Origin: a virus
Lineage: Duplodnaviria > Heunggongvirae > Uroviricota > Caudoviricetes
Virus record (IMG/VR): IMGVR_UViG_3300045988_115807
Length of the DNA stretch: 46,701 nt
Direction: 5' to 3' (one strand)
Both the position numbers and the translations under genes were made by a program. Under the pieces are notes generated by a model. It had not been told where the DNA came from and made no database searches. It was given only the letters and a program-made list of their open reading frames with translations. Below, one piece after another: positions 20,826 through 45,596 of this stretch (its first letter is position 1; each line of letters begins with the position of its first letter).

Positions 20826-21160
20826 CAATACAAGAACATAAACAGAGAACATAAAAATAAAGTAATGACACAAACACAATAAAGAACATAAATAAAGAAT
20901 TAGAACCAATGCTAAATAAAGCAGTACACAAAATGAGAACATTACACCAAATGAGAACATTAATCAAGAACATAACGAAACATAATTCCCCATTATACGC
21001 GCGTATAATGGGGAATTATGTGCTGATTTTCAGAACAAAGTCAAGGAACAAATTTTAACGTTCCGATATTGTGTTTTTATTTATTATCCGTTATTGTGTT
21101 CTGTTAGTTTGTGGCTAAGTTAACGCGTTATTAGTTATCTTATTCTCAAATTGTGTTACG
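20826..21160. repeat. AT-rich tos-like region: AGAACA(T) direct repeats left of, and inverted TGTTCT/TTGTGTT repeats right of, the telomere palindrome
   Basis: CAAGAACATA, GAGAACATA, AAGAACATAAAT, GAGAACATTA (x2), CAAGAACATAACG on the left; CAGAACAAAG, TATTGTGTT (x2), TGTGTTCTG on the right. Confidence 0.6.
20980..21021. other. telRL-like telomere resolution site (42-bp perfect palindrome, telO core)
   Basis: ACATAATTCCCCATTATACGCGCGTATAATGGGGAATTATGT is perfectly self-complementary; centre between 21000 and 21001; central CCATTATACGCGCGTATAATGG matches my recollection of the N15 telO core; 171 bp upstream of telN. Confidence 0.85.
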
Positions 21161-26449: not shown

Positions 26450-26641
26450 TTACTCCCCGTTCACCGAAAATTCACGATAGAAACGTTTCCACATACGATA
26501 AGTCTGCGCAAATTGTTCACCACGAAACATCGCCTTCCTGGCCTTCATGTTTTCCTTGTGAGACTTTCGGTCTATGAACCAAAACCATTGATGGAACACA
26601 CAAAGCAAGAGACACAAAGATAATATCCAATCATTACCCAT
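26450..26641 (-). CDS. small hydrophobic protein (63 aa) overlapping the repA stop
   Basis: Internal ATG of ORF 26450-26758 (MGNDWILSLCLLLCVFHQWFWF...), overlapping the repA 3' end by 8 nt. Confidence 0.35.
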   Translation of the reverse strand: MGNDWILSLCLLLCVFHQWFWFIDRKSHKENMKARKAMFRGEQFAQTYRMWKRFYREFSVNGE

Positions 26642-29600
26642 AGAAAGCGCCCTGCTCTTCGTAGCTGCATGAGCTATTCCCCGTAATGTATTCACGTAAC
26701 CGCCGCAGCTCATTGCTGGAAAGGTGATCCATGAACTCTGTGAGGTACAGGGATGCAAACGTCATAGCTATGCTGGCTGATGACCATGATGACATAGTGG
26801 CCAACTCCTCACTGGAAAGCGCACTCATCGCCCAGGACTCAGGTACAGCCACTGGCAACACGGCCAAAGCCTCAGAAATTACTGAATGAGGGGCGTTTTG
26901 AACCTGCTCGTTTGTGGATCGCGTTTTATCATCCATATATATATTGAGATCCAAATCGCGATCCATTTCGATGGCTGTCTTCTCGGCTTTACGCGTTTTT
27001 AGGGTTAGGCCATCTTTCTGACGCTGAACAAGAATATCCAGCATAAATGCCGCTGATTCAGGCTCAACAAAACGCAAGGTTGGACGCTTATCGCCGTCTC
27101 TGCCGCGACGTTTACCTGTTTTAAGGCCAAGAGAGTCGCAAATGTTTTTAAACAACGCTTCCGGCACTTTAGGCTTCCCTTTTGGCGTCATAAAACCACC
27201 AATGTGCAGAACGTTATTCAACAGGTCACGGCGTTCGGCTGTCATGAGGTTATCTCGAGCGAATTTGAGACGCTCCTGAGTCGCCTCGCCGGTCATAGTC
27301 TCAGGGTTGATACCGCAGTCGATAAAGTACTGCCGGAGAGTTGCTGATTTAAGCGCATAGAAACCGCGCGCCCCGACTTCAACAGTAGGAGTAGCTTTTA
27401 CCTTGTGATCGATTATTCCAGGGAATTTAGTTTTAAAGACATCATCAGCCTGCTCGCGAGTCATCGCGGTCACTACAAAATATTGCCACTGTCCCGCCTG
27501 ACGGTATGTGTAGGTAAAATTGATGGCTGCTTCTTCCCGGTCGTAACGACGAGCTGTTACCTCATCTAAAAGCATTGTTTCATAGCGGCGAACTTTGTCT
27601 CGAGCACCATCGAAATAGAATTTCAGCGTGCCTTCTTCAACCGGTAGTTTCAGTTCGTTTTCAATATCCCAGCGGACAAGTTTTGCCTGTTCTTCAAGCG
27701 TCAGCGCGCGTTTTTTTAGCAGTTCTTCACGCTCTGATTCTTGTGGTGTTTCTGTATTGAGGTGCAGATCCAGTGTCTGTTCCCACACAATATCCCGCGC
27801 TTCTTTACGCAGATCTTTACCGATATCATTCGCAGCATAATCGGTGGCCAGCGGTGATACCTTATAACCGTCGCTGTGCATGATGCAGATCATGTTGCTG
27901 GCGTAGTCGTTACGCGCAGTCGCTTCAATTGCGGCTGCTTTAATTTTCATCCTGGTAAAGTCGGTATTGGCCACCCCCATTGATATACGGTCGCCATCGA
28001 AAACGACATCCGTAAGTTCACCGTTCATACCTGCGGTAGCAAGCAATGCCTGGGCGAATGCTCGTTCTATTTTTTGCGGGTCAGTTTCACGTTTTGCACG
28101 AGCTTTATCAAAGCCGATAATAAATTCTTTTGCTGTACGGTCGCGGCGTAGCATTTGCACTGCATCACTGGGTACAACTTCACCACAGAACATGCCGAAA
28201 TGACGGTCAAAATGTTTTTGCTCAATCGACACGCCGGATGAAATAGACGGGCTATAAATCAGGCCGTCGTATTTTTTGACCATCTTTTTCGGTTGATTGG
28301 TAAATGCTTCAACTTCTGGCTCTGGTTTGTTTTTCTGGTTTACACACAGAAATTTCTTACCAGGAAAATGCATTCTCAGGGTGGCTGTCACATCTTCTGC
28401 AAAGGTGGAGCTGTCGGTGGCCAACATGATTTTTTCGCCATCCGATACAGCTTTCACCACCTCGGTCATGATGCGATCTTTTTCTGTATAAAAAACCCGG
28501 ATTGGCTCACCTGTTTCGCGGTTGCGAACATCAACAGGTAATTCAATTACGTGGATCTGCAGCCATGCCGGTAAACCTAGTTCTTCACGGCGTTTCATAG
28601 CCAGTTCAGCCAGGTCAACCAGCAGATCGTTCGCATCAGCATCCACCATGATTGGGTGTTGTTCCGTTCTGGCCAGCGCGTCAATTAGCGTATTGAATAC
28701 AGCCACCGGGTTTTCCATAGCCCGACCGGAAAGAACGGCACGTAGCCCTTGTGTGGCCTCGTCAAAGCCAAAATAGTCGTGCTGGCGCATCAACGGTTGC
28801 CAGCAGTTTTTAACAATCGAGTTTATGCAGATGGTCAGTTTACTGGCGTATGGAGCCATTTCCTGATAGCCAGGGTCCTGATAGTGCAGGATATCGGTTT
28901 TTACACCTTTTCCTTCTGTCATCATTTCCCACAGGCCACCAATAAGGGAAACACGGTGAGCAACAGAGATACCACGTTCTGAGCTATGCATTAAAGGTCG
29001 TAACAATCCAGTAGATTTGCCGGAACCCATACCAGCACGAACGATGACTATCCCCTGTAGTGATTGCACATACTTCAGGACGTCATCGGTCATTACCGAA
29101 GTTTCAAAACGCTTATAGGTGATATGTTGAGGACGTTTATTGGGATCAGTTATGCGTTCGCTGAATGAGCGCGGAGCCTGGGCAATACGGCACTTTTTAT
29201 TCAGGCGACGGGCAATGTGGTCTTTTACCGTAGCGCGATAGATATTTTCCAGCCCCATTTCACGCAGAACGATGCAGAACATGTTAAATAAGTCTGACGG
29301 ACTGTTAGGAACCGGACAGGTTAGCATGCCAATATCCACCGCTCTCAGCAGCTCTTTGGCAAAAGTACGACGGTTATCCCGCTTAATTGTCTTCAGGCGG
29401 TTGAGCGTCAGAGATAGCAAATCAGTGCCGGTTTTCAGGCGGTTTGCAGTTGCAAACAGTTGACGTGCTGTTTCACGAAGTCCACGCAGTTTGTGCAGGT
29501 CGTTGAAGTCACTGCACTCCATTTGCGGATCGTCTTCAAAAGTTGGATAGACGCAGCGGACATCGTTGAATTTCGATAAGATTTCATAGCCAGTCCGCAG

Positions 29601-30629
29601 GCCGGTATTCCCTTTTCCTTCTGTGGCTGATTTCCGGTCATTATCCAGTGCGCAGGTGATTTTTGCCGCCGGGTACATGTTTACCAGTTGTTCCACAACA
29701 TGAACCATGTTATTAGCGGATACAGCGACAACCACAGCGTCAAAGCGTTTATCTTTTTTCGTGGCAAGCCAGATGGATGCACCAGTAGCAAAACCTTCTG
29801 TAACAGCGATGTTTTGCGCCCCTTTTAGCTCACCGATAACAAAGCAGGCACCGACGAAATCGCCGCTGGTTACGGCGCTGGTCTGGTATTTTCCACCTTG
29901 TTTGTCGATTCGCTGCCAACCCACAATACGACCATCGTAACGACCGTCCAGGTGAGCCAGAGGGATAGCCATATACGTGGTTGGCCCCCTGCTCCATTTT
30001 GCGCTGTCGTGACTGGTCACGCGACGCACATCACACGAATTAAAAACGTCACGAATACCTTTTTTAATCGCATATGGCCATGAGCCGTCTTCTGCAGGAG
30101 CATGTTCCCACGCGCTGTGGAATGCCAGCCATCCCAGCAAACGTTCATGGTCCATTTGGTTGTTTTTCAGGTCATTAATTCGTTTTTGTTCTTCACGGCG
30201 ACGACGTGCTTCGGCCTGACGTTCTATTCTTGCCCGTTCTTCTTCCGGTTGTGCGACCACGGTCGCATTATTCCGTTGTTGCTCACGGCGATATTCAGAA
30301 AACAGGAAGGAGAAACCGCTCCATGAGCCAGCATCGCTGCCTTTATGGACGAAGTTAATGAACGGGTAATCAATCCCTTTGCTGTGTTCCAGCCGGGAGT
30401 AAATTTCTACGCGTCCTTTGAGGCTCTTTTCGAGAGCTTCTGGAGATGTTTTATTGTATGAAGAGTAACGCTCAACACCCCCGCGAGGGTTGAGTTGGAT
30501 GTTGTCGGAACAGGCAGACCAGTTGATACCAGCCATCTGTGCCAGCTCGGTTAGTTCATCCCGTGCTGCTTCAATTAGCGAGAACGGATCGCTGCCAAAG
30601 CGATCCGCATAGAAATCGTTTAATGTCAT
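26634..30629 (-). CDS. repA: replication protein RepA (primase-helicase, N15 RepA-like)
   Basis: 1331-aa ORF; contains Walker-A-like GMGSGKST; size and position next to cB match N15 repA, whose 3' part is reported to contain the replication origin. Confidence 0.9.
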   Translation of the reverse strand: MTLNDFYADRFGSDPFSLIEAARDELTELAQMAGINWSACSDNIQLNPRGGVERYSSYNKTSPEALEKSLKGRVEIYSRLEHSKGIDYPFINFVHKGSDAGSWSGFSFLFSEYRREQQRNNATVVAQPEEERARIERQAEARRRREEQKRINDLKNNQMDHERLLGWLAFHSAWEHAPAEDGSWPYAIKKGIRDVFNSCDVRRVTSHDSAKWSRGPTTYMAIPLAHLDGRYDGRIVGWQRIDKQGGKYQTSAVTSGDFVGACFVIGELKGAQNIAVTEGFATGASIWLATKKDKRFDAVVVAVSANNMVHVVEQLVNMYPAAKITCALDNDRKSATEGKGNTGLRTGYEILSKFNDVRCVYPTFEDDPQMECSDFNDLHKLRGLRETARQLFATANRLKTGTDLLSLTLNRLKTIKRDNRRTFAKELLRAVDIGMLTCPVPNSPSDLFNMFCIVLREMGLENIYRATVKDHIARRLNKKCRIAQAPRSFSERITDPNKRPQHITYKRFETSVMTDDVLKYVQSLQGIVIVRAGMGSGKSTGLLRPLMHSSERGISVAHRVSLIGGLWEMMTEGKGVKTDILHYQDPGYQEMAPYASKLTICINSIVKNCWQPLMRQHDYFGFDEATQGLRAVLSGRAMENPVAVFNTLIDALARTEQHPIMVDADANDLLVDLAELAMKRREELGLPAWLQIHVIELPVDVRNRETGEPIRVFYTEKDRIMTEVVKAVSDGEKIMLATDSSTFAEDVTATLRMHFPGKKFLCVNQKNKPEPEVEAFTNQPKKMVKKYDGLIYSPSISSGVSIEQKHFDRHFGMFCGEVVPSDAVQMLRRDRTAKEFIIGFDKARAKRETDPQKIERAFAQALLATAGMNGELTDVVFDGDRISMGVANTDFTRMKIKAAAIEATARNDYASNMICIMHSDGYKVSPLATDYAANDIGKDLRKEARDIVWEQTLDLHLNTETPQESEREELLKKRALTLEEQAKLVRWDIENELKLPVEEGTLKFYFDGARDKVRRYETMLLDEVTARRYDREEAAINFTYTYRQAGQWQYFVVTAMTREQADDVFKTKFPGIIDHKVKATPTVEVGARGFYALKSATLRQYFIDCGINPETMTGEATQERLKFARDNLMTAERRDLLNNVLHIGGFMTPKGKPKVPEALFKNICDSLGLKTGKRRGRDGDKRPTLRFVEPESAAFMLDILVQRQKDGLTLKTRKAEKTAIEMDRDLDLNIYMDDKTRSTNEQVQNAPHSVISEALAVLPVAVPESWAMSALSSEELATMSSWSSASIAMTFASLYLTEFMDHLSSNELRRLREYITGNSSCSYEEQGAFYG
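30250..30266. repeat. sopC-like centromere palindrome (copy within the repA 5' region, 17/18 match)
   Basis: GTGCGACCACGGTCGCA(T); same dyad as the other four copies. Confidence 0.55.
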
Positions 30630-31784: not shown

Positions 31785-32484
31785 GTATATACGCAGCTGC
31801 GTATCCACGGCATTGGCTGATATTCATTATCGCCAGCGTGGCATCCTAGAGGTCCAGCTTGAGCAGATGCGTCTAGGCAGATCAGGACGCTTTAACAATA
31901 AACCAGTCCGGTCAATCAGTGTAGGTGATGATAACTCATACGAAGTGTCCGTTCCTGCTGAGCCGGTTAGATTCCACCAGGGGAAAACATTTAAACAATC
32001 ATCAATGTTGCTCACTGATATTGATTTTCAGAGCGCCAGCTGGCGCAGGGCTATTGGTCAGTTGAATAACGAGGAATCAGCCTGGCTTTATTATTGCTAC
32101 GGATGCAAGCCTGATTACAACAATGATGTGATTGTTTGTCAGTGGTTATGGCTTGATTTTCTGGTTGCTCATTCGGGGGGCGGCTTTAAAAAAATGAAGG
32201 CCTCCACGAAAAAAGCCATGCGGAAATTGATTTATTACGCGGCACAGCAGGTTAAATCAGAACTTACGTGTGCTGAGGCAGTTGATGAGAGAGAACAGGA
32301 CAGGCATCTGAGTTTTCTACTGAATATATCTATTGATAGCTGGAGACAAGATTATAAAGAACGCTGGCTTTTAATTAAGTCGCGATGTCTGAGCTTAAAT
32401 CGAACTGCATTATTAAATGCGGCGGAGAAGCGCAGTGAAATCATCAAACGCCATCGGGCAGGAAGTGCCATTCTGCCTTTGTAA
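31774..32484 (+). CDS. putative late-gene antiterminator (Q-like)
   Basis: 236-aa ORF immediately after cro, as in N15 (cB-cro-Q); Cys-containing YYCYGCKPD segment; assignment is by position, not strong sequence recall. Confidence 0.4.
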   Translation: MELEYIRSCVSTALADIHYRQRGILEVQLEQMRLGRSGRFNNKPVRSISVGDDNSYEVSVPAEPVRFHQGKTFKQSSMLLTDIDFQSASWRRAIGQLNNEESAWLYYCYGCKPDYNNDVIVCQWLWLDFLVAHSGGGFKKMKASTKKAMRKLIYYAAQQVKSELTCAEAVDEREQDRHLSFLLNISIDSWRQDYKERWLLIKSRCLSLNRTALLNAAEKRSEIIKRHRAGSAILPL

Positions 32485-32494
32485 ACAAGTTATG

Positions 32495-32737
32495 TTCAGG
32501 AAACCGTCGAAGCCAGAATTAAGGTATTCGGGGGTAAGAAATGAATATGTTATCTGGTGTCCAACTTGTGGTTACAGGACACGACCAGATAGTAATAAGC
32601 AGTCTGTAATTGCCGATTGGTATTTATCAAATCAGCCAGGTAATAAGCATATAGAAAATCTTTGGATTAAGCGTTACTTGGAAATCAGAGAGGGTGCGAC
32701 CGTGGTCGCACAAGAAAATGAAAATAACGCCATTTAA
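32495..32737 (+). CDS. small hypothetical protein with zinc-ribbon-like motif
   Basis: MFRKPSKPELRYSGVRNEYVIWCPTCGYRTRPDS...; internal start of ORF 32417-32737; no clear RBS. Confidence 0.3.
   Translation, partial: FRKPSKPELRYSGVRNEYVIWCPTCGYRTRPDSNKQSVIADWYLSNQPGNKHIENLWIKRYLEIREGATVVAQENENNAI
32694..32711. repeat. sopC-like centromere palindrome
   Basis: GTGCGACCGTGGTCGCAC: 8-bp inverted arms with a 2-bp spacer. Confidence 0.65.
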
Positions 32738-32921
32738 GCAGGGGCCGATGACGCATGATGAAGCAGAGCGTCTTTCAGATACTTATCGGCGGCGTGGTAA
32801 GAAAGTTCTGGTTGTTCGTTCTGATTTTTTAGGTGATGGATATTGCGTTTATGTTCATTTACCTGAATCAGAAAGAACGCCAAAACCATCCAGAACATAT
32901 CAACAGAAAATTTGGGTATAG
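32718..32921 (+). CDS. small hypothetical protein (68 aa)
   Basis: MKITPFKQGPMTHDEAERLSDTYRRRGKKVLVVRSDFLGDGYCVYVHLPE...; weak translation signals. Confidence 0.3.
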   Translation: MKITPFKQGPMTHDEAERLSDTYRRRGKKVLVVRSDFLGDGYCVYVHLPESERTPKPSRTYQQKIWV

Positions 32922-32944
32922 ATAAACGTTGAGGAGAATTATTC

Positions 32945-33544
32945 GTGACTAATCAGATTATTTACGACAGGAAACGGTCTGATGTAATGATTGACCTTGA
33001 AACAATGGGTACTAACACATGTGCTCCAATTGTTTCTATCGGGGCAGTGTTTTTTTCTCCAGAAAGTGAGGAATTAGGTCCTACTTTTTATGTACCAGTG
33101 AATCTCAGAAGCTCGATGTTGAATGGTGGTGTCGCCGATGGTGATACCATTTTATGGTGGTTGAAACAGAGCAAGGAAGCCAGAGCCGCAATTTGTACTA
33201 ATGATGCCCTTGATATTAAGGATGCACTTTTTGAATTATCACACTTTATTACTTGCCATGCATGTAATTTAAAAAAATTGAAAGTATGGGGAAATGGAGC
33301 AACGTTCGATAATGTAATTTTACGCGGTGCTTATGAGCGCGTTGGCTTAGCCTGTCCGTGGGAATATTTTAATGATCAGGATGTTCGAACAATCGTTAAC
33401 CTTGGTCAGTTTATTGGTTTTAATCCTAAAAAAGATATGCCATTTGATGGCGAACGACACAATGCCCTGGCTGATGCTATTCATCAGGCTAAATATGTAT
33501 CAGCAATTTTCTCCCGTCTTGTAAAAGGGCAAGGAGAATCGTAA
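32945..33544 (+). CDS. 3'-5' exonuclease, DEDDh (DnaQ/RNase T-like) family
   Basis: GTG start with GAGGAG RBS; motifs MIDLETMG (Exo I), WGNGATFD (Exo II), HNALADA (Exo III). Confidence 0.8.
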   Translation: MTNQIIYDRKRSDVMIDLETMGTNTCAPIVSIGAVFFSPESEELGPTFYVPVNLRSSMLNGGVADGDTILWWLKQSKEARAAICTNDALDIKDALFELSHFITCHACNLKKLKVWGNGATFDNVILRGAYERVGLACPWEYFNDQDVRTIVNLGQFIGFNPKKDMPFDGERHNALADAIHQAKYVSAIFSRLVKGQGES

Positions 33545-33963
33545 TGGCAAAGGCTTTTACACCAGAACAGAGGGAAGAACTGAATAAACAAATTGTGGAA
33601 CTCGTGCGCCTGAATGGACGAGGAACGGTTAGGCAACTTGCGGATGAAACTGGTATTAGCCGGTGTGCTGTTAGTCGTTTATCAAGAGAGCTTGCTGCCA
33701 GTGGTGATTTGTATATCTCTGGCTCCGGGATATTTCTGTCTGCACAAGCACGCAAGGACTGGCAAAACGCCCGTAAAAAACTATCAAGAGTAAAGCCGAA
33801 GACATCGGTAGTGGTTGATCCAGACCTTATCTGGTCATTACCTGACGGAGAAATACGTCGTTACGACAGGCGCTTGAACATGATTTGTCACGATTGCCGG
33901 AAAAGTGAAGTTATGCAGCGTGTGCTGGCTTTTTATCAGGGAAATTTTCAGGAGGTGGCGTAG
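33544..33963 (+). CDS. hypothetical DNA-binding protein (winged-helix-like)
   Basis: ATG overlaps the upstream stop; ...RGTVRQLADETGISRCAVSRLSRELAASGDLY... HTH-like segment. Confidence 0.55.
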   Translation: MAKAFTPEQREELNKQIVELVRLNGRGTVRQLADETGISRCAVSRLSRELAASGDLYISGSGIFLSAQARKDWQNARKKLSRVKPKTSVVVDPDLIWSLPDGEIRRYDRRLNMICHDCRKSEVMQRVLAFYQGNFQEVA

Positions 33964-34253
33964 TGAATATCGACACCACGATAACGATCGATACGGCCAT
34001 AAATATCGGTCTGGCACTTCTCGGTTGGTTTTACATCATGTTCAGTGCGGGGAAGTGGGCGGCCTCTGTTTTTCTAAAGCAGTGGGGAAAGCACCGCAAA
34101 CAGGAAAGACGCCAGAAAGTGTTAGAGGCGTTCTATGACGCATTTGAACTTAGCCGCATTGAGCCAGGCACAACAGCCAAGATAGCGACAAAAGGCGACC
34201 TGATGATAGTGATGTTCCGACAGGAGAGAGCAGAGAAAGGGGAATCAGCATGA
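33963..34253 (+). CDS. small membrane protein
   Basis: GTG start; hydrophobic N-terminus INIGLALLGWFYIMF. Confidence 0.45.
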   Translation: MNIDTTITIDTAINIGLALLGWFYIMFSAGKWAASVFLKQWGKHRKQERRQKVLEAFYDAFELSRIEPGTTAKIATKGDLMIVMFRQERAEKGESA

Positions 34254-34828
34254 AATTTTCCAAATTTTCTGAGTTGGTGAATCGTATTTTGTCCAACAAC
34301 CACAGCCATCGTCGCGATATGGATGTAACAATCGTTATTCATTCGCCTGGCAGCATTGGTTCAACACCTTCAGTTGAGGTTCAGTCAATTCACGCTGGTT
34401 TTGATTGGGATTCCGGGAAAGTGCTTATTTTCCCATCACAGCCACTGACCACGCTAACACCAGAACAGATTACTGATATCACTGATAGTGTGCGCAAAGG
34501 TCAGTCCTGGCACGCATATCAGGAATACAAAAAGCATAAAGAGCAGTTGGAAAAATTGTCTATTGAGCTGGAAGCTGCAAGAAAGCGAATTTCAGAACAG
34601 GGAAATAAAGTAATACCAGTGTCAGCTGAATTGCCACCTGCAAATGAAAGTGTTCTGTTATTTGATGCTAACGGAGAAGGCTGGCTGATTGGCTGGCGTT
34701 CTCTCTGGTACACCTGGGGACAAAAGGAAACCGGAGAATGGCAGTGGACATTTCAGGTCGGGGATCTTGAAAACGTCAATATCACTCATTGGGCAGTAAT
34801 GCCGAAAGCACCGGAGGCTGGAGCATAA
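34250..34828 (+). CDS. hypothetical protein with DUF551-like Trp-rich C-terminus
   Basis: C-terminal ...GEGWLIGWRSLWYTWGQKETGEWQWTFQVGDLENVNITHWAVMPKAPE resembles the DUF551 hallmark ending. Confidence 0.6.
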   Translation: MKFSKFSELVNRILSNNHSHRRDMDVTIVIHSPGSIGSTPSVEVQSIHAGFDWDSGKVLIFPSQPLTTLTPEQITDITDSVRKGQSWHAYQEYKKHKEQLEKLSIELEAARKRISEQGNKVIPVSAELPPANESVLLFDANGEGWLIGWRSLWYTWGQKETGEWQWTFQVGDLENVNITHWAVMPKAPEAGA

Positions 34829-35385
34829 TGATCACGTTTACCGACAAAGAACTGATTAAAGAAATCAAAGAGCGAATCGGTAGCCTGGACGTTCGAGACA
34901 ATATTGAGCGCCGTGCTTATGAAATTGCACTGGCATCGCTGGAAGCAGATCCAGTTGCTTATATTTTCAAACATCCGGCTGGAAAATTATTCTGGGCTTT
35001 AACGGATGAAAGCAATAAAGAGCAATCGGACGTTATTCCTGTTTATGCCGCCCCTCCAGTGCCAGTAGTACCTGAAGAAAAACCAATGCCTAACCCTCTT
35101 AAAATGTACGCGGTTGATGCTGTTGCCGCTATTGCAGAGGTGAGAGGCTGGAACGCCTGTCGTGCCGCTATGCTTCAGAGTCAAGGTAATTGCATTAAGG
35201 ATGGTTGGATAAGCTGTAGTGAGCAAATGCCAGATGATGGTCGTATTCAGTTTTCTGTTTCACTTCCAGCAGCATGTGGTGGAGATAAATATTTTATTGA
35301 TGGTGTATTTCAACCTTTGAGATATGAGCGTGACTGTGAAAAAGCGGTTGTGGCCGCTGGCGGTGTAGTTAATTGGGTTAAGTAA
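34828..35385 (+). CDS. hypothetical protein (185 aa)
   Basis: ATG overlapping the previous stop (TAATG); start of ORF 34789-35385 moved to the first ATG. Confidence 0.55.
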   Translation: MITFTDKELIKEIKERIGSLDVRDNIERRAYEIALASLEADPVAYIFKHPAGKLFWALTDESNKEQSDVIPVYAAPPVPVVPEEKPMPNPLKMYAVDAVAAIAEVRGWNACRAAMLQSQGNCIKDGWISCSEQMPDDGRIQFSVSLPAACGGDKYFIDGVFQPLRYERDCEKAVVAAGGVVNWVK

Positions 35386-35400
35386 TTTTTAGGAGGATTT

Positions 35401-35727
35401 ATGGCGCTGACACCGGCAGAACGGCAAAGAAGACGCAGGGAACGGTTGAAGAAGGAAGGAACATCAAGACGTGACTGGATTCTGGAACCTGACGAGTTAC
35501 GTATGTTGGGGGAAATTTGTGTATTGCGTAGACCAGGGCGAGTTCCATATTCAGAGAACGAAGTCATCGGACTGCTGATCAGGAAAAACTATAAGGAGTT
35601 GCAGAAACAGCTATCTACTACTTGTCCGCGATGTGGTCAAAAAATGCCTGTTTCAGAATGCATTTTTGATGGTGAAGGCTCATGCCACCTTACAACCACG
35701 AGGCTGAAACTTGCGCTCAAAGTGTGA
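35401..35727 (+). CDS. hypothetical protein with basic N-terminus and CxxC motif
   Basis: GGAGGA RBS; MALTPAERQRRRRERLKKEG...CPRCGQ... Confidence 0.55.
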   Translation: MALTPAERQRRRRERLKKEGTSRRDWILEPDELRMLGEICVLRRPGRVPYSENEVIGLLIRKNYKELQKQLSTTCPRCGQKMPVSECIFDGEGSCHLTTTRLKLALKV

Positions 35728-35745
35728 CTGGTCACGGAGGGATAA

Positions 35746-35901
35746 ATGGACAAAAAGGCATTGCTTTTTGAAATGATACGAAAACGGAGCGAAAAGAGCT
35801 TTTCTGATGGTGGTGATGGGCTTTTGAAAGTGGTTGGGCGAGGCGTAGGAAGGGAACATAAGTATCAGACTACAAAGATATTTAACCAGTTAATCCATTG
35901 A
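35746..35901 (+). CDS. small ORF (51 aa)
   Basis: GGAGGG RBS 6 nt upstream; MDKKALLFEMIRKRSEKSFSDGGDG...; below ORF-track cutoff. Confidence 0.3.
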   Translation: MDKKALLFEMIRKRSEKSFSDGGDGLLKVVGRGVGREHKYQTTKIFNQLIH

Positions 35902-35927
35902 AAGTTGGCTATAAAATTTGAGTTTTA

Positions 35928-35947
35928 CCCTGTAATTTTATACAGTA
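35928..35947. promoter_or_regulatory. LexA (SOS) box
   Basis: CCCTGTAATTTTATACAGTA fits the CTGT-N8-ACAG consensus (taCTGTatatatatACAGta), with an AT-rich spacer and flanking TA. Confidence 0.65.
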
Positions 35948-35969
35948 TCAAATAACCTTTTTTAATTAA

Positions 35970-36188
35970 ATGGTATTAGATTCAATGACTGAAGCACCTG
36001 TATCAACTCTTGAAGAACTCGGATCAAACCTAAAAGACATCGACGCCGTTTTGGATCTGGTTAGCGTTGCTCTGGCTTCTCCAGAAGCCAGCTTGCATCT
36101 TGGCGAGATTTCACGACTTGTTAGTATGTCGCGGGAGATTGCTCAGAATTGCCAACAAGTTATTGCTGTTGAGTGTTTGCATCATTGA
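35970..36188 (+). CDS. small protein downstream of the LexA box; candidate SOS-inducible antirepressor (AntC-like by position)
   Basis: 72-aa acidic ORF; the promoter region upstream carries the LexA box and a TTGGCTATAAAATTT half-site also present in the cB-cro operator. Confidence 0.45.
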   Translation: MVLDSMTEAPVSTLEELGSNLKDIDAVLDLVSVALASPEASLHLGEISRLVSMSREIAQNCQQVIAVECLHH

Positions 36189-36231
36189 TACACACCCCGC
36201 CCTTCTGGACGGGGTAGCGAAAAGGGTCTAA

Positions 36232-36519
36232 TCAATAGACGGCATTAATATTAATCGTTGCACCGCATGCTTGGGCATATTTTGATAAAGTTTTCATGCT
36301 TGCCCCTAAAGGATTGCTTTCCAGGCGGCTGATAGCTGACGGGCGCAATCCCATTCGTTCAGCCAGAGCTGACTTCGTTAAACCTGCTCTTTCCCTCATT
36401 TCGTATAACATTTCGACCATCTCCAGCTCTTTATCGGCCTCTTCATATCCTTTGATGGCTTCTGGAGTGTTGAGAAGTTTTTCTTTTACTTCGTTAAACG
36501 GGATGCCTTTCGCTTTCAT
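36232..36519 (-). CDS. HTH (XRE-family) antitoxin, HigA-like
   Basis: ...RERAGLTKSALAERMGLRPSAISRLESN... HTH; start overlaps the toxin stop by 1 nt (TGATG). Confidence 0.7.
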   Translation of the reverse strand: MKAKGIPFNEVKEKLLNTPEAIKGYEEADKELEMVEMLYEMRERAGLTKSALAERMGLRPSAISRLESNPLGASMKTLSKYAQACGATININAVY

Positions 36520-36830
36520 CAGTTCATCTCCTTCAGGCGAGTTCTGGCGATTTCGATAGCCTTCACCGGTGTTTTCTGTGTCTTTTTTACAAATGCATGC
36601 AATAGATAAATTTCGTTACCAGTCGCGTAGGCGTACAGCGTTCTTGCGATGTTTTTATCCCCTACTCGTAGTTCAAAAAGCCCTCCACCTATTACACGGC
36701 TATGGGGCATCTTCAGTTTGTTGCCTTCCTTCTCCAGTCGCTCAATTAATCTGGTCATGCGACCTCGCAAATCATCTGGTAGTTCAAGCAGTTCATCCAG
36801 TGCTGCAGGGTGGGTTATCACGTTAAACAT
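36519..36830 (-). CDS. RelE/ParE-superfamily toxin, HigB/Gp49-like
   Basis: 103 aa; toxin-first operon order with a downstream HTH antitoxin, typical of HigBA / Gp49-like modules. Confidence 0.7.
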   Translation of the reverse strand: MFNVITHPAALDELLELPDDLRGRMTRLIERLEKEGNKLKMPHSRVIGGGLFELRVGDKNIARTLYAYATGNEIYLLHAFVKKTQKTPVKAIEIARTRLKEMN

Positions 36831-36888
36831 ATTATAGCCTCCATAGCCATAAAATACACCAAAACAAGAAAAAAGCGCAAATTAAAAA

Positions 36889-36906
36889 TTTCACTAAAAA
36901 GTGAAA
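36889..36906. promoter_or_regulatory. inverted repeat in the toxin-antitoxin promoter region (candidate operator)
   Basis: TTTCAC-TAAAAA-GTGAAA, about 60 bp upstream of the toxin start. Confidence 0.35.
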
Positions 36907-36995
36907 AATAACACTGGATGTGTTCGTTTGGCAGAGTTACAGTTCGTGTCATTGAGGGGCAATAACCCACTAACTATATGAATTTGGAGGATATT

Positions 36996-37217
36996 ATGAA
37001 TTATCAAGGTAACGAAAAAATGCGCGACGACGTTGCGGAGATAGCTAACGAACTGTATGAGTTGTGGCAGAAGGTTGAACGTTTCGAAAAGGAATATGGT
37101 TTCAACAGTACCAACCTGGCAGACCGACTGGCTGGTCGCTTAGTTGGGACTATGGGGCCAAAACTGGCTGAGTTGAACCGCTTTATGGCTGATGTTGATT
37201 TCCAGTTTCAAGATTGA
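36996..37217 (+). CDS. hypothetical protein (73 aa)
   Basis: GGAGGA RBS; MNYQGNEKMRDDVAEIANELYELWQKVERFEKEYG... Confidence 0.5.
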   Translation: MNYQGNEKMRDDVAEIANELYELWQKVERFEKEYGFNSTNLADRLAGRLVGTMGPKLAELNRFMADVDFQFQD

Positions 37218-37230
37218 TTAGAGAGGCGTT

Positions 37231-37458
37231 ATGAATATTAATGAAATTCGTGGAAATATGACTGAAGCGGCCCTGAGTGTGGAATGTGTTATGCGTGGAT
37301 ACCCACGCATTTCCCTGAAAGAGTTAAGCGAAGCCTGTTTTTTGAGTCAAGCTGCCGTTGAATTTATCATCGAACAGATGATCTGTTTTGGGGTTGCAAA
37401 GCGTAGCGGGTCTGGTCGATATTCTTTGACCGATGAATATAAGCAGGCAACTTTCTAA
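37231..37458 (+). CDS. hypothetical protein (75 aa)
   Basis: GAGAGG RBS; ORF followed by a centromere palindrome and a terminator. Confidence 0.5.
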   Translation: MNINEIRGNMTEAALSVECVMRGYPRISLKELSEACFLSQAAVEFIIEQMICFGVAKRSGSGRYSLTDEYKQATF

Positions 37459-37463
37459 AAACT

Positions 37464-37481
37464 GTGCGACCACGGTCGCAC
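37464..37481. repeat. sopC-like centromere palindrome
   Basis: GTGCGACCACGGTCGCAC (extends to CTGTGCGACCACGGTCGCACAG). Confidence 0.65.
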
Positions 37482-37566
37482 AGCACAAAAACGAAAAAGC
37501 TTGGCAAAATTACGGTTTTTAGTTATTGTTTTGTTAAGTTGGGTTTTTTGTACCCAACAGCCAACA

Positions 37567-37592
37567 AGCCGCCTTTATGGCGGTTTTTTTGT
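37567..37592 (+). terminator. rho-independent terminator
   Basis: AGCCGCCTTTATGGCGGTT followed by TTTTTTG. Confidence 0.6.
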
Positions 37593-37725
37593 GCCTGAAA
37601 AGTGGGCGCAGGACAAGTTGCAGCTTGTCCTGCGGTCAACCCATGCCAGAGCTATAGGCTGAACCTAAAGCCCACCCGCGATGCGCATCGCCGGGTTAGC
37701 TTACCCAGGCAAAAAAATAATAGCT

Positions 37726-38802
37726 ATGTTCAAAACCACTAATATTCATGGCGCGCAACTCGTTTGCGCAGATTCTCTGCAATTTATCAAAACCATCCCT
37801 GATAACTCGGTCAATTTGATTGCAACAGACCCACCATACTTCGGCGTAAAGGCTAACGCATGGGATAACCAGTGGGATAGCGATGCTGACTTTTTGGGGT
37901 GGATTGATGAATTTTTGGCAGAATTTTGGCGGATATTGGCCCCTAATGGCAGCCTGTATATGTTTACCGGCTCTCGCCTTGCGTCAAAAATTGAATTATT
38001 AACTCGCGACCGTTTCAATGTTCTGAACCATATCATTTGGGCTAAACCCAGTGGTATGTGGCGCGGTTGTCATAAAGAAAGTTTAAGGGCTTATTTTCCT
38101 GCCACTGAAAGAATATTATTTGCAGAGCATTACGGCGCGTCAGGTTATGCTAAAGGTCAGTCAGGTTATGCTTCAAAATGTGCAGATTTAAGAAAAAATA
38201 TTTTTTCTCCACTAATTGATGCTTTTTCGCTGGCTCGCCGTCAGTTAGATATATCAGCCGCAGACATTAATTCAGCAACAGGAAAGCAGATGTGTTCGCA
38301 CTGGTTTTCTTATTCGCAGTGGCGGCTTCCATCATTAAGTGATTTTAATAAACTATGCGAATTATTTCGCAGGAAGGCAGATTCACTCGGTGTCCCGTGT
38401 CCATATCCTTTTAATGTTGATTATTCAGAACATGAAAAGCGTTATAGCGATCTGAAATTGCGTTATGAGGAAGTAAAGAAGCAGTATGATGATTTGAAGG
38501 CTCAGTATGAAAATTTGCGCCGCCCATTTCATGTTACTGCTGATGTACCTTATACCGATGTATGGGAGTTTCCTCCTGTGCAATATTATCCTGGCAAGCA
38601 CCCATGTGAAAAACCTGCAGCGATGATGGAACATATTATAAAAAGTAGTTCCCGCCCCGGAGATATCGTTGCCGATTTCTTTATGGGATCAGGCTCTACT
38701 ATTAAAGCCGCGCTGAAGTTAGGTCGTCAGGCAATCGGTATTGAGATTGAGGGTGAACGTTATCTTCAGACAGTTGATGAAGTGAAAAAGTTATTTGAGT
38801 AA
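37726..38802 (+). CDS. DNA methyltransferase (DPPY motif; N6-adenine or N4-cytosine, beta-class)
   Basis: LIATDPPYF (motif IV) near the N-terminus and FFMGSGST (motif I) near the C-terminus; start could instead be 37681. Confidence 0.8.
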   Translation: MFKTTNIHGAQLVCADSLQFIKTIPDNSVNLIATDPPYFGVKANAWDNQWDSDADFLGWIDEFLAEFWRILAPNGSLYMFTGSRLASKIELLTRDRFNVLNHIIWAKPSGMWRGCHKESLRAYFPATERILFAEHYGASGYAKGQSGYASKCADLRKNIFSPLIDAFSLARRQLDISAADINSATGKQMCSHWFSYSQWRLPSLSDFNKLCELFRRKADSLGVPCPYPFNVDYSEHEKRYSDLKLRYEEVKKQYDDLKAQYENLRRPFHVTADVPYTDVWEFPPVQYYPGKHPCEKPAAMMEHIIKSSSRPGDIVADFFMGSGSTIKAALKLGRQAIGIEIEGERYLQTVDEVKKLFE

Positions 38803-38897
38803 CTGAAGAATATATTCCCCTGCCGTTTTTGATGGGGTTATTTCTCGCCGTATAGTTTCCAAGCCGAAACCTCAGCAACTATTGCGAGGTAAGAGAT

Positions 38898-39170
38898 ATG
38901 AAGATGGATGAACGATACAGCAGCGCATCTTATGGTAGTGCTGGTCTTACTGCGTTCTTTGCCAGCCTGTCATTGCAGGATTGGGGCTTCATTATCGGTG
39001 TCGCGTTCAGCATTATCCTCGGTGTACTTACATACCGGCTCAATAAACGCGAGCAGATGAAGCGCACGAAGATATTGCAGGACATATTGGATAAAACTGA
39101 TGCCAATAATATTTCCGCCACGGCGATGGTTATTGGTGAATTGGGAAAGAGAGCACCGAAGGAAATATGA
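38898..39170 (+). CDS. holin (dual-start MKM motif)
   Basis: MKMDERY... dual-start holin/antiholin pattern; hydrophobic segments; immediately upstream of the endolysin. Confidence 0.7.
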
Positions 39171-39667
39171 TGCAGTCATCATTACGCAAAGCTGTCGCAA
39201 CTGCTATTGGTGGCGGGGCTATTGCCATAGCATCTGTGCTCATCTCTGGTCCGAGCGGCAACGATGGTCTGGAAGGTGTGAGACATAACCCCTACAAAGA
39301 CATCGTTGGTGTATGGACTGTATGTTACGGGCATACAGGAAAAGACATTATGCTCGGTAAAACGTATACCGAAGCAGAATGCAAAGCTCTCCTGAATAAA
39401 GACCTTGCTACTGTCGCCAGACAAATTAACCCGTACATCAAAGTCGATATACCGGAAACAACGCGTGGTGCTCTTTACTCGTTCGTTTACAACGTGGGTG
39501 CAGGCAATTTCAGAACATCGACACTTCTTCGCAAAATCAACCAGGGCGATATCAAAGGTGCATGTGATCAACTACGTCGCTGGACATATGCTGGCGGCAA
39601 GCAATGGAAAGGGCTGATGACTCGCCGTGAGATTGAGCGTGAAGTCTGTTTGTGGGGGCAGCAATGA
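39167..39667 (+). CDS. SAR endolysin (T4-type lysozyme, GH24)
   Basis: N-terminal signal-anchor-release-like segment [20 protein letters not shown] followed by lysozyme-like domain (…VCYGHTG…); start overlaps the holin stop. Confidence 0.85.
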
Positions 39668-40131
39668 GCAGAGTAACCGCAATTATTTCCGCACTGGTTA
39701 TCTGCATCATCGTCTGCCTGTCGTGGGCTGTTAATCATTACCGTGATAACGCCATCGCCTACAAAGAACAGCGTGATAAAAAAGTCAGTGAGCTGAAGCA
39801 GGCGACCGCCACCATCGCTGACATGCAGCAGCGTCAGCGTGATGTTGCTGCGCTCGATGCAAAATACACGAAGGAGTTGGCTGATGCGAAAGCTGAAAAT
39901 GATGCTCTTCGGCGCAAGCTTGATAATGGTGGTCGGGTGCTCGTCAAAGGAAAATGCTCTGTGCCATCCTCAGCCGAAACCTCCAGCGCCTCCGGCATGG
40001 GCAATGATGCCACCGTCGAACTCTCTCCAGTTGCTGGACGAAACGTTCTCGGTATCCGGGACGGAATCATCAGAGACCAGACAGCACTGAGAACGCTTCA
40101 GGAATACATCAAGACGCAATGCCCGAATTAA
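39664..40131 (+). CDS. i-spanin Rz
   Basis: [24 protein letters not shown]... N-terminal TM anchor followed by coiled-coil; position after endolysin. Confidence 0.8.
39884..40090 (+). CDS. o-spanin Rz1 (lipoprotein embedded in the +1 frame of Rz)
   Basis: [22 protein letters not shown]... lipobox VVGC followed by Pro-rich [16 protein letters not shown], like lambda Rz1. Confidence 0.7.
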
Positions 40132-40172
40132 TCCCTCTGTATCAAAAACGAACTCAATTTGTTGGATAGTGA

Positions 40173-40484
40173 ATGAAAATTTATATTGCCGGGCCAATGA
40201 CTGGATATGAGAACTTTAATCGTGACGCCTTTAATAAAGAGGCAGATCGTTTGTCACGACATGGTCACTCTGTCTTGAATCCAGCCACTTTGCCTAATGG
40301 TCTGACACAACGTGAATACATGGATATTTGCTTTGCAATGCTTCGTTGTGCTGATGCTATTTTGATGCTTCCTGGCTGGAAAGCGTCTGCTGGAGCAACT
40401 GCTGAGTATCATTACGCATACAAGATGGAGATGCCGGTATTCACTACGCTGAATTACCCGCCAGCTTGTTCCTCTGTAGCATAA
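40173..40484 (+). CDS. DUF4406 / nucleoside 2-deoxyribosyltransferase-like protein
   Basis: MKIYIAGPMTGYENFNRDAFNKEADRLSRHGHSVLNPA... N-terminal IYIAGPMTG motif is characteristic of this Rossmann-like family. Confidence 0.65.
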   Translation: MKIYIAGPMTGYENFNRDAFNKEADRLSRHGHSVLNPATLPNGLTQREYMDICFAMLRCADAILMLPGWKASAGATAEYHYAYKMEMPVFTTLNYPPACSSVA

Positions 40485-40503
40485 AAATCTCTTTGTTTCT
40501 CGT

Positions 40504-40521
40504 GTGCGACCGTGGTCGCAC
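40504..40521. repeat. sopC-like centromere palindrome
   Basis: GTGCGACCGTGGTCGCAC. Confidence 0.65.
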
Positions 40522-40722
40522 ATTAAATACCGCGCTGCATCGTCGCCGTATTTCCGCATTAACCATGACCGTAGCCCGACGGGGAACTCCTCTGCGCGAG
40601 TGTGCGGAAATAATCAAAAACGATGCACACCGGGTTTTTACCGCGCTAATGATTCGCGGGTTTGTCCCTCATGCTCGCCAGTCCTGTGCGAGGGTGGAAG
40701 AAACAGGGCATGTATTCAGGAG

Positions 40723-40740
40723 CGTGCGACCGTGGTCGCA
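40723..40740. repeat. sopC-like centromere palindrome
   Basis: GTGCGACCGTGGTCGCAC. Confidence 0.65.
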
Positions 40741-40764
40741 CGGTATCTTTGTCAGGAGGTTTTG

Positions 40765-41079
40765 ATGAAAGAGTTGCAAAAAATTAATTCAATAATGGAA
40801 AGGTTAAGTGCTCTTGAGCGTAAGCTGGACGATTGTGGAAAGCTGTGTGTTGAAAAGCAAAATGAGCTTTACCGGGAATTTTTTACAATCGTAAGTGAGC
40901 TGATGCCAATTGTTAATAACTGCCTGATGACATCCAGATTTTTTAATGTCGATGCTACTACATCCAGAAAATTTTCTGTGAAAATTCAAGAAAGGGTTTC
41001 TGGTAGTGTGACAAGAGAGATGGCTGAACAGTTGGTGGCAATGAGCAATAAAACAAAAAGAAAAAAGCATTGCTTGTAA
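40765..41079 (+). CDS. hypothetical protein (104 aa)
   Basis: AGGAGGT RBS 5 nt upstream; MKELQKINSIMERLSALERKLDDCGKL...; the upstream part of ORF 40504-41079 is judged non-coding. Confidence 0.5.
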   Translation: MKELQKINSIMERLSALERKLDDCGKLCVEKQNELYREFFTIVSELMPIVNNCLMTSRFFNVDATTSRKFSVKIQERVSGSVTREMAEQLVAMSNKTKRKKHCL

Positions 41080-41129
41080 CAGCAAATCAGCTTTCAGGGC
41101 GCGTTGACTTTCAGGTGTTGCGGCATGCA

Positions 41130-41369
41130 GATGATAATTATTATCATTGCGGGTCCTTTCCAGTGATCCGACAGGTTACGGGGCGGAAGGCGCGCGGGTT
41201 TTCGCTATTTATGAAAATTTTCCGGTTTAAGGCGTTTCCGTTCTTCTTCTCCGTAACTTAATGTTTTTATTTAAAACACCCCCTGAAAAGAAAGGAAACG
41301 ACAGGTGCTGAAAACAGGCCTTTTGGCCTCTGTCGTTTCCTTTCTCTGTTTTTGTCCGTGGAATGAACA
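41130..41369 (+). other. cos region (cosQ-cosN-cosB); predicted 12-nt cohesive end GGGCGGAAGGCG at 41181-41192
   Basis: Sequence aligns base-for-base with my recollection of the lambda cos junction (…GATCCGACAGGTTACG | GGGCGG… CGCGGGTTTTCGCTATTTATGAAAATTTTCCGG…, R3/R2/R1-like GTTTCC repeats) except within the cohesive-end dodecamer and a few cosB positions. Confidence 0.8.
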
Positions 41370-41889
41370 ATGGAAGTCAACAAAAAGCAGCTGGCTGAAA
41401 TTTTCGGTGCGAGTATCCGTACCATTCAGAACTGGCAGGAGCAGGGAATGCCCGTTCTGCGAGGCGGTGGAAAGGGTAATGAGGTGCTTTATGACTCTGC
41501 CGCCGTCATAAAATGGTATGCCGAAAGGGATGCTGAAATTGAGAACGAAAAGCTGCGCCGGGAGGTTGAAGAATTACGGCTGGCCAGCGAGGCAGATCTT
41601 CACCCCGGAACACTTGAATTTGAGCGCCATCGCCTGACTCGTGCTCAGGCGACGGCGCAGGAACTGAAAAATGCCAAAGAATCGGCTGAAGTGGTGGAAA
41701 CCGCATTCTGTACTTTCGTGCTGTCGCGTATAGCAAGGGAAATATCCAGTATTCTCGACGGTATTCCTCTGTCGGTGCAGCGACGTTTTCCTGAGCTGGA
41801 TAACCGGCATATTGATTTCCTGAAACGGGATATCATCAAAGCCATGAACAAAGCAGCCGCGCTGGATGAACTGATACCGGGGTTGCTGA

Positions 41890-41915
<26 letters not shown>
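41370..41915 (+). CDS. nu1: terminase small subunit Nu1
   Basis: MEVNKKQLAEIFGASIRTIQNWQEQGMPVLRGGGKGNEVLYDSAAVIKWY... near-identical to lambda Nu1 (181 aa). Confidence 0.95.

Positions 41916-45596
<3,681 letters not shown>

Follow-up and report, generated by a model that had tools for sequence, protein, structure and literature searches.

A recurrent natural allele of the lambda-type cos site, with five substitutions in the predicted cohesive end, in an N15-like phage genome

The DNA analysed here (the window, a whole stretch of 46,701 bp) is a complete, circularly permuted N15-like genome of the Ravinvirus type; an open reading frame (ORF) that runs across the end of the window into its start indicates that the genome is closed and permuted. 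The features by which Ravinvirus and N15-like genomes are recognized are all present, namely a protelomerase with TelK domains according to Pfam (21192-23093), a perfect, unresolved 42-bp tel-like palindrome (20980-21021) and a 1331-aa RepA-type replicase-like ORF (26634-30629) that aligns to the replication gene of the Ravinvirus YDC107_1. The nearest INPHARED record is also YDC107_1, at 94-98% identity, and it has the same length as the window (46,701 bp). Within the YDC107_1 record (L122, CP025712.1) a long inverted duplication, with the protelomerase/tel region at its centre, extends over positions ~32276-41206, and it looks like an assembly read-through of the hairpin telomere of a linear-plasmid prophage. 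In the window, the interval between the lysis genes and cos contains an ORF resembling DUF4406 and nucleoside 2-deoxyribosyltransferases (40173-40484), and a neighbouring 191-aa ORF (40504-41079) for which no Pfam match was found.

The cos site has the cosQ-cosN-cosB arrangement of lambda. The packaging-termination element cosQ is the heptamer GGGTCCT on the top strand at 41151-41157 (lambda -30 to -24), with the same sequence and spacing as lambda 48473-48479, and its function in the window is assigned from lambda (PMC4669245). The 16-bp cosN (41179-41194) is composed of a 12-bp cohesive-end sequence with CG at each nick (CG/GGGCGGAAGGCG/CG, slashes marking the nicks), in keeping with the lambda-like pattern CG/GGGCGG....../CG, and within 41140-41260 its context reads ...GCGGGTCCTTTCCAGTGATCCGACAGGTTACG/GGGCGGAAGGCG/CGCGGGTTTTCGCTATTTATGAAAATTTTCCGG... 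The predicted 12-nt 5′ cohesive end occupies 41181-41192 on the top strand, and aligns with GGGCGGCGACCT of lambda and GGGCGGCGTCCG of N15. A second near-match to it, with one mismatch, is located inside the tape-measure gene (7411-7422) and is at chance level. The top-strand spacer that separates cosN from cosB (41193-41229; 37 bp, lambda bp 13-49) is the same as in lambda. It is followed by R3 (41230-41245, top strand), the binding site of the terminase small subunit (TerS, Nu1) that positions the large subunit (TerL) on cosN, which is the same as lambda bp 50-65 and lies at an equal distance from bp 1 (R3 coordinates from PMC9026076). The interval between R3 and R2 (41246-41288, top strand), which in lambda holds the IHF site I1, has a few substitutions relative to lambda. 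R2 (41289-41304, bottom strand; AGAAAGGAAACGACAG on the top strand) is inverted with respect to R3 and R1 and is the same as lambda bp 109-124, and R1 (CTGTCGTTTCCTTTCT; 41330-41345, top strand) is the same as lambda bp 151-166, displaced by 1 bp through a deletion upstream of it.

A TerS gene of the Nu1 type and a TerL gene of the gpA type lie directly downstream of cos, as in lambda-like phages. Nu1 (41370-41915, top strand; 181 aa) matches the Pfam family PF07471 (Phage_Nu1) at E=1.7e-95, and its amino acid sequence is 92.8% identical to lambda Nu1 and 54.1% identical to N15 gp1. Gene A (41890-43815, top strand; 641 aa, GTG start) encodes the endonuclease that nicks cosN, with the Pfam domains GpA_ATPase and GpA_nuclease (PF05876, PF20454). 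The window gpA is the same as lambda gpA at 639/641 positions (99.7%) and differs by N9D and S21A alone; both substitutions are at the extreme N-terminus, and the Pfam nuclease domain spans residues 322-600, so that the nuclease domain is identical to that of lambda. The window genome is a mosaic in this respect, being N15-like but with a packaging module of the lambda type and not of the N15 type.

The lambda record NC_001416 starts with GGGCGGCGACCTCGCGGGTTTTCGCTATTTATG, of which the first 12 nt are GGGCGGCGACCT, and ends with ...GATCCGACAGGTTACG. When the lambda cos junction is reconstituted and globally aligned to the window, the two sequences are colinear over a stretch that reaches from ~60 bp left of cosN through the whole of Nu1, with cosQ, bp 1-6, the CG at both nick positions, the spacer, R3/R2/R1 and the start of Nu1 (41370) all in register. 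The two dodecamers are the same at 7/12 positions and differ at bp 7, 8, 9, 10 and 12 (C>A, G>A, A>G, C>G and T>G); C11 is retained, and the hexamer at bp 7-12 reads AAGGCG in the window versus CGACCT in lambda. Between -35 and +120 there are 13 mismatches to lambda in 155 aligned bp, five of which fall inside this one hexamer (P ~1e-5 for a fixed hexamer; ~1.6e-3 when corrected over all hexamer positions), values that argue against chance scatter through random divergence. An earlier note on this DNA had described a lambda-type cos junction with conserved flanks and terminase in which only the dodecamer was changed; the ends of the lambda record agree exactly with the lambda sequence given in that note, and the alignment and the identities of gpA and Nu1 bear out the rest.

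Lambda-like phages commonly differ at bp 7-12, with conservation of cosQ, of the left half of cosN and of the CG at each nick (Feiss et al. 2015, PMC4669245). The conservation of the left half and of the CG flanking the nicks is described in PMC9303873 as well, where the cosN survey of Vahanian et al. (2017) is also cited for conserved first four bases and two flanking base pairs. In the account given in PMC4669245, right-half mutations have a minimal cleavage phenotype and symmetric left-half changes a severe one (Xu and Feiss 1991), an asymmetry that depends on the anchoring of TerL by cosB (Hang et al. 2001). With lambda-type terminase the yields on cosN-lambda and cosN-N15 are equal, and no cosN specificity is reported for right-half changes (PMC4669245). 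The published tolerance data concern the 2-bp N15 allele and sites altered at one or a few positions, whereas the variant is a 5-of-6 replacement with lower symmetry, the twofold symmetry of cosN being 8/16 positions in the window versus 10/16 in lambda; the literature suggests that this loss of symmetry matters little on the cosB-proximal side.

With lambda as the guide, Nu1 would bind R3, R2 and R1 and position gpA, which would nick the strands 12 bp apart at the conserved CG/G and G/CG steps and leave 5′ overhangs of sequence GGGCGGAAGGCG. Since R3 lies at the exact spacing of lambda and the CG steps at the nicks are intact, TerL should nick the top strand at 41180/41181 and the bottom strand at 41192/41193. 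The bottom-strand nick would be made by a cosB-anchored TerL for which the sequence of bp 7-12 hardly matters, and a lambda-type terminase would thus cut the variant without any change of its own. We consider it very probable that the window contains a working cos site of the lambda type, with cosQ-cosN-cosB ahead of Nu1 and A, and that the phage is temperate and N15-like.

The consequence of the substitutions lies in the sticky ends, which no longer match those of lambda, and not in an altered packaging specificity. The lambda cohesive-end type, in which ends are interchangeable among lambda, 434, 21 and phi80, has the overhang GGGCGGCGACCT, and the overhang predicted for the window is a different one. 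Each of the two overhangs has 10/12 G+C, and the predicted self-annealing energies are -18.6 kcal/mol for the variant and -19.0 kcal/mol for lambda. The ends of a chromosome would be derived from identical cos copies in a concatemer, would be perfectly complementary and would cyclise as well as those of lambda; given the matched G+C content and duplex stability, cyclisation of the phage’s own DNA should be normal. Between variant and lambda ends only six contiguous base pairs are predicted (-9.5 kcal/mol, about half the energy of matched ends; the lambda/N15 mismatch gives ~-15.2 kcal/mol), and annealing of variant ends with lambda DNA should therefore be badly impaired.

N15 offers the experimental precedent. 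Its genome type is common to the window (protelomerase, linear-plasmid prophage), and in N15, as in phiD326, the changes relative to lambda are likewise confined to bp 7-12 and include T12G, but they involve two positions (9 and 12; PMC4669245), compared with five in the window. The N15 record NC_001901 starts with GGGCGGCGTCCG, the simple cosB of N15 contains only one R3, and the spacer is CGCAGATTCTCGC..., whereas the window has a right flank and R sites of the lambda type; the N15 set of a single R3, the N15 spacer, GGGCGGCGTCCG and an N15-type TerS was not found in the window. In the experiments with N15, TerL of lambda cuts the right-half variant normally, and chromosomes whose ends are mismatched at 2 bp cyclise; their yield of viable phage is lower by a factor of about four, and both alleles can segregate from them (PMC4669245). 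Gifsy-1, which differs from lambda at 8, 9 and 11 (PMC4669245), and mEp213/LLS (GGGCGGCGCGCT, an allele credited to Vahanian et al. 2017 in PMC12315714) are also presented, in the passages of these two papers that treat them, with a 12-nt 5′ end that is conserved in its left half and variable in its right half, and their hexamers differ from AAGGCG. AAGGCG equals none of the natural cosN hexamers described in the literature examined. Likewise GGGCGGAAGGCG occurs in no phage paper of the literature searched, where it was encountered only in irrelevant plant and Streptomyces papers. Relative to lambda itself, the window shares cosQ, bp 1-6 and C11, the CG at both nicks, the 37-bp spacer and R3/R2/R1, and is unlike it in five cohesive-end bases and in that the site resides in an N15-like genome instead of a Lambdavirus genome.

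The distribution of the allele was assessed in several collections. A first scan of IMG/VR was anchored on the right flank alone and was unbiased as to the 12-mer; among the matches listed it yielded 121 sites, comprising 111 of the lambda type, eight with GGGCGGAAGGCG and two singleton alleles. Collapsed to unique 182-nt haplotypes, the matches listed amounted to 78, with 72 of the lambda type and four of the variant, and the variant share is thus ~5-7% of lambda-type cos sites among the matches listed. In this unbiased sample, again among the matches listed, bp 7-10 and 12 vary in complete linkage, and the right-half hexamer (41187-41192, top strand) can be regarded, from the alignment and the IMG/VR linkage, as five substitutions inherited as one linked block. 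Across the 78 unique haplotypes among the matches listed, cosQ is nearly invariant and cosN positions -3 to +5, 11 and 13 are invariant. At bp +14, the second base past the bottom-strand nick, T is found in place of G in 4/78 of the haplotypes listed, at sites with the lambda allele (...CGACCT CT...), which contrasts with the literature, where the CG flanking the nick is called highly conserved.

A second IMG/VR scan, for any allele in which bp 7 is not C, recovered exact GGGCGGAAGGCG in 79 contigs, along with the rare hexamers GAGCGT, TGACCT, AAGCGT and AAGGCT. Rare alleles noted on lambda-type flanks are GGGCGGGAGCGT, GGGCGGAAGCGT, GGGCGGAAGGCT, GGGCGGTGACCT and GGGCGGCGACCG (contigs L162, L202, L195, L201, L164, L179 and L064), and a change in the left half was encountered in a single case, GGGCGACGACCT (L102). 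The cultured phage PhiR70_1 (L224, PV340577.1) carries a one-step allele, GGGCGGAGACCT, on lambda-type flanks. Combinations of the variant with a phi80- or N15-type spacer were not found in the IMG/VR scan, whose two hits were a chance match and a lambda-type site altered at a few spacer positions; the variant therefore appears confined to the lambda-type spacer family.

Among ~70 INPHARED phages with the lambda-type spacer two carry GGGCGGAAGGCG: YDC107_1 (CP025712.1) and PhiR46_1 (PV340565.1), the latter a cultured, propagated phage whose record names ECOR13 as the propagation host. In PLSDB the 12-mer is present in 23 plasmids, mostly of 42-50 kb, from E. coli, E. fergusonii, E. albertii and Shigella sonnei. 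Roughly 100-180 of the 4189 matching complete E. coli records may carry the variant, a rough inference from identity bands that mix partial and full alignments. Among GTDB representatives (17 hits in the scan) it was found in one genome, Escherichia sp. E1V33, and every lambda-type right flank outside Escherichia/Shigella was a lambda control-DNA contaminant, a pattern which indicates that the lambda-type cos family is restricted to Escherichia and Shigella. The contamination, with canonical cos, accounts for 10/17 of the GTDB hits (L208, L212-L217, L219-L221) in assemblies of unrelated taxa, including a Chromatiales MAG, Oceanobacillus, Leeuwenhoekiella, Shewanella, Raphidiopsis, Archangium and an Alicyclobacillus ‘plasmid’; the contaminant contigs often have a coverage of ~1x, and some begin exactly at cohesive-end bp 1 or past an adaptor-like GTCAGT.

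All records with GGGCGGAAGGCG place cos internally, and in the records of YDC107_1, PhiR46_1 and the E. fergusonii plasmid NZ_CP055603.1 the cos site and the ends are unannotated. The dodecamer and right flank of these three are identical to those of the window. NZ_CP055603.1 is the nearest plasmid, with 99.7% identity over 1.3 kb around cos, including the left flank of the window. YDC107_1 and PhiR46_1 differ from the window in their cosQ-cosN spacer, GGCAGGCTACG, and in a segment of ~547 bp immediately upstream of cosQ (L001 3169-3715 in YDC107_1; L204 in PhiR46_1), in place of which the window has 8 bp (41117-41124); some of this ~547-bp insert copies window 40532-40702 at 93% identity, and the insert marks a mosaic boundary adjoining cos.

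The variant was found together with at least three cosB/TerS types, the TerS being 35-100% identical to that of the window, and with TerL that are 65-100% identical to lambda gpA. Contig L163 combines the variant cosN with a TerL that is identical to lambda gpA at 641/641 positions and with a Nu1 that is 99.4% identical, the co-occurrence of the variant with a lambda-identical TerL being seen in prophage and metagenome contigs. To judge from these sequences, the terminase does not co-vary with the allele. The occurrence of the variant with the lambda-identical TerL of L163, along with the published right-half tolerance, indicates that cleavage by lambda terminase is probably unaffected. In four IMG/VR contigs (L127, L132, L178 and L187) the cosB next to the variant cosN is of a third kind (GAGCATTTTAAGGGGACTGGTGG...), and the TerS-like ORF beyond it is only ~35% identical to Nu1. 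No lambda-like TerL was found within 3 kb; these contigs may be satellite-like or rearranged elements. The cos-adjacent TerS-like ORF of L127 had no PDB match. A phage-inducible chromosomal island (PICI) packaged by lambda was considered as a carrier of the variant and rejected, as cos1 and cos2 of EcCICFT073 have canonical cosN (PMC6739421, supplement Fig. S1A).

The expectation in the earlier note that the changed overhang would affect compatibility with lambda packaging systems can be retained for end annealing and hybrid chromosomes (-9.5 versus ~-19 kcal/mol), but not for recognition and cleavage by terminase, given L163 and the published genetics. Its description of the change as unusual does not hold, as differences at bp 7-12 are common (PMC4669245) and the exact 12-mer recurs widely in public data. 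Because it is recurrent and natural, and falls within the half of the site that lambda terminase tolerates, the variant is an ordinary recurrent natural allele of lambda-type cos.

The two alleles share left flanks, and they share right flanks as well. Two contigs of one metagenome, L006 with the lambda allele and L191 with the variant, have 21 differing positions in 7 kb, and from -183 to +734 (~900 bp) their sole differences are bp 7, 8, 9, 10 and 12. This pair indicates that the allele acts as a cassette confined to the cohesive end. A likely route of transfer would be the packaging of a chromosome between two unlike cos alleles, generating a mismatched overhang duplex; the heteroduplex would then be resolved by replication or by Pol I nick translation, with allele and flanks recombined exactly at the nicks. 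Such a route has been shown for lambda/N15 ends (Feiss et al. 2015, PMC4669245), and for the variant it would require that ends with only six contiguous base pairs cyclise at least occasionally. Short-patch conversion would be an alternative route.

A further step would be to suppose that selection keeps the two main alleles apart as non-annealing ‘cohesive-end compatibility groups’, and that such groups would restrict hybrid chromosomes or exploitation by lambda-like elements resident in the same cell. The distribution in IMG/VR is strongly bimodal among the matches listed, with the five sites fully linked and few intermediates; G+C content and annealing energy are matched between the alleles, the predicted cross-annealing energy is halved, and yields drop about fourfold with as little as a 2-bp mismatch of the ends (PMC4669245). 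Yet the cos copies of a rolling-circle concatemer are all identical, leaving a lone phage with nothing to gain, and one-step alleles do exist (AGACCT in PhiR70_1, TGACCT, CGACCG and AAGGCT). The variant is the minority allele (~5-7% among the matches listed), and an impression of discreteness can arise from clonally redundant E. coli prophages in the databases. Selection for separate groups is in our estimation an unlikely explanation. The same doubt attaches to the fuller proposal that lambda-type cos in Escherichia is dimorphic (CGACCT/AAGGCG), with two energy-matched, non-annealing alleles that are served by one terminase, exchanged as a nick-bounded cassette via heteroduplex overhangs and maintained as compatibility groups.

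It is less likely still that the altered cosN has co-evolved with a matching change in TerL and confers a packaging specificity distinct from that of lambda. The change of 5/6 right-half bases, the reduction of cosN symmetry from 10 to 8/16 and the presence of N9D and S21A in the window gpA could be read in this way, but the two substitutions are outside the nuclease domain (322-600), right-half changes are without reported cosN specificity (PMC4669245), near-isogenic contigs carry one allele or the other, and the variant is found on at least three types of cosB, with TerL of 65-100% identity to lambda, and in L163 with the 641/641 lambda TerL and 99.4% identical Nu1. There is a similarly slight chance that the variant is nicked elsewhere and that the real overhang is not the 12 bases that align with lambda. 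The position of the overhang in the window is assigned by homology, and nicking in lambda becomes inaccurate when cosB anchoring is disturbed (PMC4669245); however, the literature holds that the nick position is set by the cosN-to-R3 spacing, and in the window R3 is at exactly the lambda distance from bp 1, the spacer is the same, and neither the CG at the two nick sites nor the left half-site has changed. The possibility that the dodecamer reflects faulty sequencing or assembly where genome ends were joined, or the mutated cos of a dead prophage, can be practically dismissed: assemblers do join linear virion DNA ends at cos and many lambda-like prophages of E. coli are defective, but the same 12-mer is present in >100 independent records (79 IMG/VR contigs, 23 plasmids, two GenBank phages and one GTDB genome), PhiR46_1 is propagated, the window genome is complete and circularly closed with intact Nu1, A, portal, telN and tel palindrome, and the five changes are always linked, with no partial decay, in the IMG/VR haplotypes among the matches listed.

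The reading of the site as a working lambda-type cos with an ordinary natural allele overturns nothing in current understanding, and its practical value is small but real. Genome-end prediction or annotation that uses the exact 12-mer of lambda misses ~5-7% of lambda-type cos sites (the share among the matches listed). DNA of a phage with the variant will not co-anneal with lambda arms or markers, and use of the variant cos in cosmids or for in vitro packaging should still work. The replacement of 5 of 6 bases alongside a lambda-identical TerL provides natural-history support for the model of a sequence-tolerant, cosB-anchored nick, and the L006/L191 pair is a clean natural example of the transfer of a cohesive-end allele. 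If lambda-type cos were indeed dimorphic in the sense set out above, the resulting compatibility groups would limit the viable hybrid chromosomes that can arise among co-resident lambda-like prophages and satellites.
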